From: Escherichia coli
GTDB taxonomy: Bacteria > Pseudomonadota > Gammaproteobacteria > Enterobacterales > Enterobacteriaceae
Reading direction: 5' to 3' (one strand)
DNA: 64,000 nt
Assembly (NCBI RefSeq): GCF_029227855.1
Contig: NZ_CP074356.1
The notes under the pieces are model-generated. The model saw only the letters and a list, made by a program, of their open reading frames with translations. It did not search any database and had not been told where the DNA came from. A program made the translations under genes and the position numbers. Positions 4,326 to 50,055 of this stretch are shown here, in pieces. Each line of letters starts with the position of its first letter. The first letter of the stretch is position 1.

Positions 4326-4637
4326 ATGCACATCATTTCGAAAGCGCCATTTGAAGAGTGTGCGCGCAAATATCCTAACGACGCTCTGGCTCTACACTCA
4401 TTGTATCGGGTTATTAAGGAAACGGATTTTTCTACACCAGAAGAAATGCGAACGGCGTTTCCTAACCTCGACAATTTTAAATATCGCAACAAATGGTACG
4501 TTCTGGATGTCGGCGGGAACAATCTTAGGGTTATTGCCTACATAAACTTTGTTAATAAGCGGTTCTTTGTGAAGCACATAACGAATCACGCAGAGTATGA
4601 CAAACTGACACGTTACTACAGAGAGAACAAAGAATGA
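4326..4637 (+). CDS. HigB-family type II toxin (RelE/ParE superfamily mRNA interferase), paralog of E. coli HigB/YgjN
   Basis: 103 aa; shares with HigB the MH(L/I)I start, FP.LDNFKY...VGGN.LRV and H.EYD blocks; toxin precedes antitoxin as in higBA. Confidence 0.8.
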   Translation: MHIISKAPFEECARKYPNDALALHSLYRVIKETDFSTPEEMRTAFPNLDNFKYRNKWYVLDVGGNNLRVIAYINFVNKRFFVKHITNHAEYDKLTRYYRENKE

Positions 4638-5053
4638 CTGCTAATGCTGCACGCGCTGTTAAAGCAACAAGAGAACTGGTCAATGCAGTCCCCTTTCTGG
4701 GAGGCAGTGACTCAGAAGATGATTATCGTGAAGCACTGGAACTGGTCGAATATTTGATTGAAGAAGATGACACCAATCCACTTATCGACTTTCTGGCGAG
4801 CCGCATTGCAGAATATGAAAACAACAACGAAAAGTTTGCAGAGTTCGACAAAGCCGTTGCAGCAATGCCGGTTGGCGTGGCGTTACTTCGTACGCTGATT
4901 GATCAACATAATTTGACCTATGCGGATTTGAAGAACGAAATCGGCTCTAAATCTCTGGTCAGTCAGATTTTGTCTGGGCAACGATCCCTGACGATATCCC
5001 ATATTAAGGCACTTTCAGCCCGATTTGGCGTTAAGCCGGAATGGTTTCTTTGA
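4634..5053 (+). CDS. HigA-family antitoxin with C-terminal XRE-type HTH
   Basis: 139 aa; ATGA start/stop overlap with toxin; AVPFLGG...ALELVEYL...NPLIDFL...IGSKSLVSQILSGQRSLT blocks match HigA/YgjM. Confidence 0.8.
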   Translation: MTANAARAVKATRELVNAVPFLGGSDSEDDYREALELVEYLIEEDDTNPLIDFLASRIAEYENNNEKFAEFDKAVAAMPVGVALLRTLIDQHNLTYADLKNEIGSKSLVSQILSGQRSLTISHIKALSARFGVKPEWFL

Positions 5054-5079
5054 TTTTGACTGATGCCAAACCCAAGATT

Positions 5080-5104
5080 GCCCGATGCGCAACGCTTATC
5101 GGGC
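5080..5104. repeat. REP-like palindromic unit (gcccgatgcgcaacgcttatcgggc)
   Basis: 7-bp inverted arms with REP-like core, between antitoxin and ascB 3' end. Confidence 0.45.
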
Positions 5105-5131
5105 TTTCCTGGTTCGTGCGACGGTAGTTAC

Positions 5132-46791: not shown

Positions 46792-47121
46792 CTACGATTT
46801 GCGCATGCTTAACAGTGCGCCGATAAAAATACCTACCGCAGCTGCTGTACCCACGCTACACCAGGGTCTTTCACGAACAAAAGAATCCGCGCAGCCAACG
46901 GCATCACGCGCGGCTTGCTGGACGCGAGTACGACCATGCATTCGCGCCCTGGTTTCTTTCAGTAGAGCCTGCGCTTTACTGCGTGCGGCTTTAGCTTCCC
47001 CTTTAGCGTCGCTGCCCCAGGACTTCAACACAGATTCGAGGCTGTCAGCTAATTGATTGACATCATTCTGGATATCCTGCACGCCATCATCAACGTCGTT
47101 GCGGTTCGGTCGGTTAAACAT
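46792..47121 (-). CDS. ygaM: ElaB/YqjD-family membrane-anchored ribosome-binding protein
   Basis: Recognised; start chosen at MFNRPNRND. Confidence 0.85.
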   Translation of the reverse strand: MFNRPNRNDVDDGVQDIQNDVNQLADSLESVLKSWGSDAKGEAKAARSKAQALLKETRARMHGRTRVQQAARDAVGCADSFVRERPWCSVGTAAAVGIFIGALLSMRKS

Positions 47122-47272
47122 ATGATCCCCCATTAGAATTCGATGTAATTTTCAGTGTAGACCATAATTTTCTTAACTGAGGTTCATCGCGGCTTTATGG
47201 ACTTTTCTGAAAGCGTTGTGAATGCGCAATCAGGTAAGGTAGGCCCGCGGTTGATAATAACGAGGATCAAAT

Positions 47273-47617
47273 ATGTATTTACGACCAGACGAGGTGGCGC
47301 GCGTACTTGAAAAAGTCGGTTTTACTGTCGATGTGGTAACCCAGAAAGCGTATGGTTACCGCCGTGGGGAAAATTATGTCTATGTTAATCGTGAAGCACG
47401 AATGGGACGTACCGCCCTGGTAATTCATCCAACATTAAAAGAACGTAGTTCGACACTGGCTGAACCCGCTTCCGATATTAAAACTTGCGATCATTACCAG
47501 CAATTTCCGCTCTATTTAGCGGGTGAACGTCATGAGCATTACGGTATCCCCCATGGCTTTAGTTCGCGTGTTGCGCTTGAACGTTATTTGAATGGTTTAT
47601 TTGGCGAAGCCAGTTAA
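47273..47617 (+). CDS. ygaC: Uncharacterised protein YgaC
   Basis: 114 aa, recognised; divergent from ygaM. Confidence 0.85.
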
Positions 47618-47653
47618 AGACGCGACTGGCGATGCCAGTCGCGAAAAGAAGGC

Positions 47654-48103
47654 TCAGGCTTTTACCTGCTGGTAACGGCTGACTTTAAACAGTCGGCGGC
47701 AATAATCGAGGAAGTAGCCATAAACCGCCCCCATCAACATCGAAACAACGATGTTTGAACTGACCGCCGCCATAATCTGATGCCAGTCTGCGCCCACCAC
47801 TAACAAGATCGCCACATACACCGGTGACTGGAACGTCACATAAGCCATGATATCCGCCAGATTTTTTATCCAGCCCGACGGGCTAACTTTGCGTGCTGCG
47901 CGCATAAACAGATCGCGGTACATACCGTATGGCCATGCAATTAAGATGTTCACCGGAATCGCTACCAATCTGGAATAAAAAGATTGTTCGAAGCTCATTC
48001 CGGAGAGGAAAACTTCAATACACATGTTCACGACAGAACAGTAAACAACCATCGCGAACGTATCTGCAACTGCATGACGCAAGCGTGACTGCGGTGAGAA
48101 CAT
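47654..48103 (-). CDS. alaE: L-alanine exporter
   Basis: 149 aa membrane protein, recognised (ygaW). Confidence 0.88.
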
Positions 48104-48770
48104 GCTAATGCTCCTTAATAAAGGCGTAATGGGATGTTAATGGAGATGAAAGCAGTGGATCTCATTGCCATCTGCATTTTCGCATAGCGTATATCGCTGG
48201 CCATGACTAATCAATTAGTGAAAAATTTTTATTTAGTCAGTTTTTGTAGATAAAATATTCCGTAACGGCGCGTTTTTTGTACATTGTGGATTTTTACATG
48301 CCGATATGATTTATTTTTAATTAAATCAATTAGATATGGGCTTACCTTTAATTTCACTAATGAAAGTTTGGGGGTGAGGTAACGCTATAAGCGTAGAGAA
48401 TTCGGTGTATGTCGTGACCGGGTCATTTTCAGCATTTTTTATGCCAGACAATGTACATTAACAGCAGAAAGCACCAGTGAGGGACGTTTTCTTTTATTCA
48501 GTTTAATTGCATTTTTATTCTCTTTGGTTTTGTCGGGCTTGCGGAATTAGCGAGCAGAGAGCGCCGCTCTGCTCACCAATAACCTAAATTACTCATCAAA
48601 ATGGCTAATATATAATCTTGAAATTATTCTGAGAGTTTCAGAAAATAACAGCTGAAATAATCTCGCGCAGGACTGTAAATAGATTAAATTTTGTGGAAAT
48701 ATAATAAGTGATCGCTTACACTACGCGACGAAATACTTTTTTGTTTTGGCGTTAAAAGGTTTTCTTTATT

Positions 48771-49175
48771 ATGTCCGTAATGTTACAAAGTTTAAATAAC
48801 ATTCGCACCCTGCGTGCGATGGCTCGCGAATTCTCCATTGACGTTCTTGAAGAAATGCTCGAAAAATTCAGGGTTGTCACTAAAGAAAGACGTGAAGAAG
48901 AAGAACAGCAGCAGCGTGAACTGGCTGAGCGTCAGGAAAAAATTAGCACCTGGCTGGAGCTGATGAAAGCTGACGGAATTAACCCGGAAGAGTTATTGGG
49001 TAATAGCTCTGCTGCTGCACCACGCGCTGGTAAAAAACGCCAGCCGCGTCCGGCGAAATATAAATTCACCGATGTTAACGGTGAAACTAAAACCTGGACC
49101 GGTCAGGGCCGTACACCGAAGCCAATCGCTCAGGCGCTGGCAGAAGGTAAATCTCTCGACGATTTCCTGATCTAA
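48771..49175 (+). CDS. stpA: H-NS paralog DNA-binding protein StpA
   Basis: 134 aa, recognised. Confidence 0.95.
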
Positions 49176-49221
49176 TTACTGAGGCCGGATGCCGCCGCTA
49201 TGGCGCGTCCGGCGTCGCTTC

Positions 49222-49746
49222 TCAAGCTCGTTGGTTCCACGGCATCTTACCTAACAACCTTGCCATCCCACAAAAACCGCTAATTCCTGCAAACAGTAAC
49301 CCGGCACCAACAAAGCCGCTTAATAAGAAGAAACCGCTATTTACGGTATAACCTAGTATAACTCCGATTAATATTAAACCACCCGCAGCGATCTGCACCT
49401 GGCGCATTAACGGCAAGGGTTGAGATTTATTTACCGCTACTGGTAATCCTGCTTTTTTCCAGCCATCAATCCCATCTTCGAGTAAAAAGATTTCTGCGGG
49501 GGCGGCAATCGCTGCTAATTTATCGGCGTTATTACTGGTGCGTTTACCTGCCTGGCAGTGGAATATAATTTGCTCGTGACGTAATTTAGCCGGAAGACCT
49601 GACTGTTCCAGCACGGATAATGGAGCCAGATCTGCTTCAGGAATATGCTCACGAAGATATTCATCAGCGTCACGAATATCGATTAACTTTGCGCCGCGTG
49701 CGATTAATTCTTGTGCATCATGCGGCGAAATGGTTGTCAAAGCCAT
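49222..49746 (-). CDS. ygaP: Membrane-anchored rhodanese (thiosulfate sulfurtransferase)
   Basis: 174 aa, rhodanese domain with active-site Cys (FHCQAGKR) and C-terminal TM helices. Confidence 0.88.
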
Positions 49747-49755
49747 AGTGACTCC

Positions 49756-50055
49756 TTACGGACAATAGACATTTTTCAGGGTGGCGATAATGGCATTTAC
49801 CGCCTCATTTTTAATGGAATATAGAATGCGTTGGGCATCCCGTTGGCTGTCGATAAGCCCTTCGTCCCGCATACGAGCGAGATGCTGTGATGTCGCAGAG
49901 GCACTCAGTCCGGTAATGCGCGTCAGCTCTCCCGCGCTGGTGCCGGGGGAACCGCTAAGCATGCACAGAATCAGCAACCGTTTAGGGTGGCTCATTGCTT
50001 TCAATAAGGCCGCTGCCTGTTCGGCACTGGCCTGCAATTGCGCGAGTTCAGTCAT
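49756..50055 (-). CDS. ygaV: ArsR/SmtB-family transcriptional regulator
   Basis: 99 aa HTH regulator co-oriented with ygaP. Confidence 0.88.
   Translation of the reverse strand: MTELAQLQASAEQAAALLKAMSHPKRLLILCMLSGSPGTSAGELTRITGLSASATSQHLARMRDEGLIDSQRDAQRILYSIKNEAVNAIIATLKNVYCP

Follow-up and report, generated by a model that had tools for sequence, protein, structure and literature searches.

The GC-rich stem between alaE and stpA of Escherichia coli: probably a neutral quasi-palindrome in a known divergent control region

The DNA between alaE and stpA is a described control region of E. coli K-12. Genomic SELEX placed binding sites for both RpoD holoenzyme and H-NS in the stpA–alaE spacer (PMC3946193). 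Transcription of stpA starts at MG1655 position 2,798,556, with a perfect TATAAT as −10 element, and is off in the wild type and on in a Δhns strain and in vitro (PMC10301672). SMRT-Cappable-seq reports an stpA unit from 2,798,537 to 2,798,047 and a transcription start site (TSS) of alaE (b2670) at 2,799,086 (PMC6131387). Lrp gives strong ChIP peaks in the spacer, regulates alaE and stpA with effects seen in reporters, and, together with a second peak in ygaP, bridges DNA, which AFM demonstrated on the very same fragment (PMC10127797). All H-NS and Lrp binding data used here come from the literature and were measured in K-12.

A GC-rich stem in the middle of this spacer can be compared with further known classes. 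It is like a Rho-independent terminator in its G+C-rich 8-bp stem and short loop, and, as a palindrome rich in G+C between genes, like a REP/BIME element. A further likeness may be offered by quasi-palindromes subject to template-switch mutation, reportedly described with lacZ and thyA reporters in E. coli: the stem could be read as an imperfect inverted repeat whose complementarity is perfected by a base change in one arm (T-to-C at 48571).

Layout and control of the alaE–stpA spacer

In the window, which is the whole 64-kb stretch of E. coli DNA that we analysed, alaE and stpA are divergent and separated by a gap of 667 bp (48104-48770). The locus is that of the H-NS/StpA-silenced, Lrp-activated stpA/alaE region of K-12, with the same −10 element and both coding sequences, and we found nothing materially different. 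Genes and promoter-proximal features are arranged as follows:

47654-48103, minus strand: alaE coding sequence, L-alanine exporter (ORF and RefSeq annotation of the identical record NZ_CP076709.1)
48104-48181, minus strand: alaE 5′ leader, TSS at about 48181 (SMRT-Cappable-seq, PMC6131387, transferred by alignment)
48179-48340, no strand assigned: conserved block next to alaE, comprising the core promoter and regulatory DNA upstream of it (column identity 0.45-0.84 in 53 non-Escherichia spacers, 0.8-0.99 in Escherichia)
48689-48770, plus strand: stpA core promoter and 5′ leader, −10 element TATAAT at 48700-48705 (PMC10301672, PMC6131387)
48771-49175, plus strand: stpA coding sequence, H-NS paralogue (ORF and RefSeq annotation of the identical record NZ_CP076709.1)

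Start sites were mapped only in K-12, and we transferred their coordinates through the alignment of the window with K-12, which has no indels in the alaE leader stretch; the sequences at the K-12 start positions and the stpA −10 element are unchanged in the source strain. By this transfer the stpA TSS lies at about 48711, with a second reported start at about 48730, and the two promoters are about 530 bp apart. RefSeq annotates no feature inside the gap, either in the source strain or in MG1655. The gap is 100% identical to that of the O158:H23 strain CFIAFB20140388 and 97% identical to that of K-12. Most of the 20 differences from K-12 lie in the spacer core, and one of the 20 perfects the stem.

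The gap has a GC content of 0.355 (35.5%), compared with 0.511 (51.1%) for the window, and ranks second in length among all gaps between annotated features of the window and first among those with an intact protein gene on either side. For the remaining divergent pairs of the window the distance is 151-259 bp, or 559 bp beside a tRNA. AT-rich sequence, two divergent promoters and published occupancy with regulatory effect together fit an H-NS/Lrp-controlled divergent promoter region. An earlier reading from the sequence only had described an unusually long, AT-rich gap that holds two divergent promoters and is consistent with H-NS/StpA autoregulation of stpA. Length, composition and both promoters, the latter through the published stpA and alaE start sites, are borne out, and the regulatory part is correct and already in the literature, as the SELEX mark for H-NS and the derepression of stpA in Δhns. 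Scans for the high-affinity H-NS motif TCGATAAATT and the Lrp SELEX consensus, allowing up to two mismatches, returned matches at near-chance frequency across the window; one match for the H-NS motif and none for the Lrp consensus fell in the spacer, which at such a frequency is uninformative.

The spacer has the same character in other species. A collection of loci anchored on AlaE comprised 80 from other species, 58 of which have stpA as the divergent neighbour. These 58 spacers measure 475-789 bp and contain 31-43% G+C. Because they share this range of length and composition, we regard the long AT-rich spacer as a conserved property of the locus.

Two side observations concern the annotation of the region. 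The alaE leader contains a putative short ORF (48115-48177, minus strand) that starts 4 nt past the mapped TSS and stops 11 nt short of the ATG of alaE; E. coli and E. albertii have it in full, and three other non-coli Escherichia genomes have only 5 codons of it. Elsewhere in the window, ascB and hycI are separated by a higB-like toxin gene and a helix-turn-helix antitoxin gene (4387-5114), a pair that K-12 presumably does not have at this position.

A stem upstream of both start sites

The stem and the features next to it are the following:

48552-48574 (MG1655 equivalent 2,798,693-2,798,715): core hairpin or quasi-palindrome, GAGCAGAG-AGCGCCG-CTCTGCTC
48546-48580, minus strand: extended 14-bp stem with two G·U pairs, predicted by RNA folding and formed only if the minus strand is RNA (K-12, −13.5 kcal/mol)
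48599-48616, plus strand: block conserved in Escherichia (identity 0.90), AAATGGCTAATATATAAT, with TATAAT at 48611-48616, about 95 bp upstream of the stpA −10 element

The GC-rich hairpin without a T-run that the sequence-only reading had placed at 48552-48574 is exact in sequence and coordinates, and the T-run is missing on both strands. Its arms, GAGCAGAG (48552-48559) and CTCTGCTC (48567-48574), form a perfect 8-bp stem with five G-C pairs around the 7-nt loop AGCGCCG. On the 3′ side of the stem, the plus strand runs on with ACCAATAACC and the minus strand with GCTAATTCCG, and neither contains a U/T-tract. As DNA, the extended stem is complementary at 12 of its 14 positions.

We determined how far such a stem exceeds chance expectation from shuffled sequences and from folding energies. 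Perfect stems of at least 8 bp with loops of 3-10 nt occur in 12.6% of dinucleotide shuffles of the gap, those of the same class with at least five G/C pairs in 0.4%. Perfect hairpins of this kind number about 20 in the 64-kb window. RNA folding of the 37-nt segment with the source-strain allele yields −13.6 kcal/mol on the plus strand (z −2.6) and −20.2 kcal/mol on the minus strand (z −4.3). The commoner alleles of K-12 (−11.2 and −13.5 kcal/mol on plus and minus strand) and O157 (−9.2 and −10.9 kcal/mol) adopt the same RNA fold in weaker form, with z of about −2.1 to −2.8. The best 36-nt hairpin of the whole gap, compared with shuffles, has a z of −6 in the source strain and stands out by 2.5 SD in K-12. 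When folded as single-stranded DNA, the alleles of K-12 and O157 do not exceed shuffled sequence in stability (z −1.0 to −0.1). Shuffle frequencies and fold z-scores thus show that the hairpin is real and unusual in the source strain; it is moderately unusual there and much less so in most E. coli.

A second fold was seen on the plus strand at 48535-48572, where GCTTGC/GCGAGC together with AGAGC/GCTCT pair in a way that is mutually exclusive with the main stem. Its energy of −14.9 kcal/mol is next to the −14.8 kcal/mol of the main stem, the two values being computed over segments of different length (36 nt versus 51 nt). This alternative is probably a coincidence of the G+C-rich patch.

The mapped start sites at about 48711 (stpA) and about 48181 (alaE) place the hairpin upstream of both, at −159 to −137 from the stpA TSS and at about −371 to −393 from the alaE TSS. 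On the published K-12 maps it therefore lies outside both the stpA and the alaE transcript and not within a 5′ leader. We set aside a 5′ UTR attenuator or riboswitch, which would have to lie in a transcribed leader; the hairpin precedes the stpA TSS by 137-159 bp and the alaE TSS by about 370 bp.

Published transcript ends are equally distant. Term-seq in LB at OD 0.4, LB at OD 2.0 and M63 reports ends at 2,798,048 and 2,798,243, both of which belong to stpA, and the next end among the entries listed is 2,800,533 (PMC7815308). Across these three conditions in K-12 and four supplementary files, no 3′ end or Rho-termination region is given at MG1655 27986xx-27989xx (PMC7815308). The SMRT-Cappable-seq tables have no entry at 27986xx-27988xx, and the only start and termination sites in the spacer are those of stpA and alaE (PMC6131387). 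The end of a small transcript, which had been proposed at the hairpin, thus finds no listed RNA end within several hundred bp in the Term-seq data from K-12 under three conditions. These maps cover K-12 under few conditions, with H-NS silencing the region, so that an RNA made only in Δhns or under a specific condition would be missed.

Known RNA classes were examined in turn. An intrinsic terminator is not supported: the G+C-rich stem-loop is present, while a U-tract and a 3′ end mapped in K-12 are absent. Unlike a Rho-independent terminator, moreover, the hairpin lies upstream of two promoters and not at the end of a unit. A scan with promoter and terminator consensus sequences found no terminator-like site in the gap and nothing at the hairpin, with counts near shuffle expectation. 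A search of 47000-50000 against Rfam 15 with E up to 10 returned sub-threshold noise, the best being cow-rumen-1 with 21 bits against a gathering score of 53. A small RNA gene is not supported either, with no TSS or 3′ end of its own listed by SMRT-Cappable-seq or Term-seq, no conservation and no Rfam family. A small protein fared no better, since none of the six spacer ORFs of at least 20 codons is open across all seven Escherichia spacers; the sole ORF that covers the hairpin has 26 codons and a TTG start and is interrupted by a stop in K-12.

We consider it improbable that the hairpin belongs to a condition-specific or H-NS-silenced RNA absent from the maps, in which the stem would stabilise the 5′ end, serve as a processing site or form a non-canonical 3′ end. 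AT-rich DNA bound by H-NS harbours cryptic promoters, and such an RNA could start, for example, at the TATAAT-containing block at 48599-48616 read on the minus strand, or at a distal upstream promoter on the plus strand. The conserved block lies 25 bp from the hairpin and looks like a promoter −10 element, the RNA folds beat shuffles in all E. coli alleles, and the C/T variants of the stem retain G·U pairing on the plus strand. Against this stand the lack of any listed TSS or 3′ end in SMRT-Cappable-seq or Term-seq, including a TSS at 48599-48616 in the SMRT-Cappable-seq table (PMC6131387), the missing U-tract on both strands and the missing Rfam match. The stem is, in addition, unconserved beyond E. 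coli and has no compensatory double changes within it.

Variation of the stem within and beyond E. coli

We followed the hairpin segment through 5426 complete E. coli genomes, in 5418 of which it is present in a single copy, and never on plasmids (word size 11, E up to 10). Alleles were counted by exact matching of 28-mers, which leaves about 1360 genomes with other, untyped haplotypes. The 3′ arms counted are:

CTCTGCTC, perfect: source window and strain 7/2, 464 of 5426 genomes
CTCTGTTC: K-12 type, 1841 of 5426 genomes
CTCTGTTC with loop AGAGCCG: ST131 type, 578 of 5426 genomes
TTCTGTTC: O157:H7 and B type, 1172 of 5426 genomes

In K-12, ST131, O157 and B, one or two positions of the stem are G·T mismatches. 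By these counts, at least two-thirds of the genomes have one or two such mismatches, and a perfect stem was demonstrated for about 9%. Among 11 sequences, from 10 E. coli strains and the closest outgroup, the 5′ arm does not vary and the 3′ arm does. Both variable positions of the stem are C/T, so that G·U pairing would be retained if the plus strand were RNA, and we found no double (compensatory) change of the stem within E. coli. The closest outgroup, Escherichia sp. MOD1-EC7003, has the 3′ arm CTCAGTTC; T at the position equivalent to 48571 is thus ancestral and the perfect stem derived. In E. coli P276M (NZ_CP044293.1), stpA is annotated as a frameshifted pseudogene, and the spacer has several small indels near the hairpin, including a 14-bp deletion just downstream.

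Between species, conservation is distributed unevenly over the spacer. Two features of its middle are needed here:

48341-48598, no strand assigned: fast-evolving core of the spacer, including the hairpin (51-52% identity to E. albertii and three further non-coli Escherichia)
48495-48520, no strand assigned: conserved 26-bp motif, TATTCAGTTTAATTGCATTTTTATTC, in which two TATTC repeats, 21 bp apart, flank (A)TGCAT

The flanks of the spacer are 67-98% identical to E. albertii and the three other non-coli Escherichia genomes, and the stpA-proximal stretch (48689-48770) is 92-99% identical across Escherichia. Column identity of the core to other genera is 7-37%. Conservation peaks beside alaE (48179-48340) and beside stpA (48689-48770), and the hairpin lies in the least conserved stretch. 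The length of Escherichia spacers is almost constant at 661-669 bp. Judged from the alignments, the divergence of the core could reflect either very fast substitution or replacement of a regulatory core between species.

In E. albertii and the three other non-coli Escherichia, four of the eight stem pairs are possible, with at most two in succession, so that the stem is absent; the most stable local hairpins of these genomes are found at other places in the spacer. Pairs that could appear compensatory come from these non-coli genomes, which lack half the pairs, and we rejected them as evidence. Over 60 spacers (58 from other species), the best local hairpins are no more stable than shuffles (median z −0.26). 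We also set aside a structure conserved without its sequence: in many genera the best local hairpin falls 200-285 bp upstream of stpA, yet its stability does not exceed that of shuffles. Conservation of the stem across Enterobacteriaceae, which had been suggested as a check, does not extend outside E. coli, and the stem is imperfect in most E. coli. Upstream of both start sites, unconserved and usually imperfect, the hairpin does not support the further suggestion of a regulatory structure. As far as the K-12 maps and the sampled genomes reach, the two outcomes that the sequence-only reading had named as refuting its proposal, no transcript end near the hairpin and no conserved stem, were both observed.

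The sole well-conserved island in mid-spacer is the motif TATTCAGTTTAATTGCATTTTTATTC. All seven Escherichia spacers and most long spacers (619-789 bp) contain it, 244-405 bp upstream of stpA, and its carriers include Klebsiella, Raoultella, Yokenella, Lelliottia, Pseudocitrobacter and some Enterobacter; it is missing from short spacers (475-557 bp). It is probably a protein-binding site, and possibly Lrp-like: we take it to resemble the old ilvIH Lrp consensus AGAATTTTATTCT. By length, the spacers form two classes, one of 475-557 bp (Citrobacter freundii group, many Enterobacter, Trabulsiella) and one of 619-789 bp; the difference looks like that of a module of 130-200 bp which only the longer ones contain.

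The same comparisons bear on DNA-level classes. A REP/BIME or ERIC-like repeat was rejected, the segment being single-copy per genome (5418 genomes) and without similarity to a repeated family. A palindromic operator for a dimeric transcription factor is not supported: the half-sites are not both conserved, at least three alleles of the 3′ arm exist in E. coli, and sister species lack the palindrome.

We hold it to be still less probable than an unmapped RNA that the palindrome acts at the level of DNA, either as a site for a dimeric regulator or as a GC-rich island or cruciform that would shape the spreading or bridging of H-NS/Lrp filaments. It is an 8-7-8 inverted repeat with an invariant 5′ arm and lies between the 26-bp motif and the stpA core promoter, where bridging by Lrp is documented; divergent transcription also makes the DNA between promoters negatively supercoiled. 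For cruciform extrusion, however, arms of 8 bp around a 7-nt spacer are short, and 23 bp is small compared with H-NS filaments. One half-site varies freely in E. coli, where a dimer site should keep both halves, the DNA hairpin energies of the common alleles are those of shuffled sequence, and sister species that retain the same genes and promoters lack the element.

Decay of an older element, for example a lost gene's terminator stem or one end of a small insert that the E. coli lineage acquired with the divergent core, is unlikely, although less so than a role in RNA or DNA. The identity of about 51% in the core (48341-48598) next to 67-98% in the flanks fits replacement of the core, and the quasi-palindrome extends to 12 of 14 complementary positions. 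The hairpin is nevertheless single-copy in every genome and never on plasmids, and it is flanked neither by direct repeats nor by ORF remnants. Nearly equal spacer lengths in Escherichia (661-669 bp) make no insertion evident, and the less palindromic form of the outgroup (8 of 14 positions by eye) suggests gain rather than decay.

Origin of the perfect stem and its meaning

We propose, with a probability of roughly 75%, that the gap is the known divergent control region and that the hairpin is a functionless quasi-palindrome in its non-transcribed middle, whose perfect stem is derived. In the gap, two sigma-70 promoters are separated by AT-rich DNA; coating of this DNA by H-NS/StpA silences stpA, and Lrp binds and bridges it. 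The hairpin would be a 23-bp quasi-palindrome in the untranscribed, rapidly diverging middle of the spacer, most likely without a function of its own. Its perfect stem would have arisen when a T-to-C change at 48571 converted the ancestral G·T to G-C, giving a minority allele. An ordinary transition or a template-switch 'correction' during replication would account for this change equally well; in this respect the hairpin differs from the established template-switching quasi-palindromes, the change at 48571 being indistinguishable from an ordinary transition. Position, the lack of listed RNA ends, the lack of conservation and the polymorphism of the stem are direct observations, from which we infer neutrality and a mutational origin.

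Several observations count against neutrality. Stability in the source strain goes beyond composition (z −6 for the whole spacer; −4.3 for the local 37-nt segment on the minus strand), the 5′ arm is invariant in 11 sequences, and the E. coli alleles share an RNA fold with z of about −2 to −3. The C/T variants that preserve G·U pairing could reflect a weakly selected RNA stem, and two transitions prove nothing. We regard it as very unlikely, more so than any other reading considered here, that the hairpin represents a cis element of recent origin, restricted to E. coli and in the course of being perfected in some lineages, either as the stem of a cryptic transcript derepressed from H-NS or as a DNA structure that tunes bridging by Lrp/H-NS. 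If it were, strains with the perfect stem would regulate stpA or alaE unlike K-12, and the alleles (perfect, one G·T, two G·T) would form a natural series for the study of promoters controlled by nucleoid proteins.

On the reading that we prefer, a neutral quasi-palindrome in a known control region, the biology of the region is that already published, namely silencing by H-NS/StpA, activation and bridging by Lrp and two divergent promoters, and the hairpin adds no evidence for a new element. A GC-rich stem that stands out from the AT-rich spacer around it can be a lineage-specific allele of a neutral quasi-palindrome, and a check of variation in the population and in sister species settles such stems quickly.
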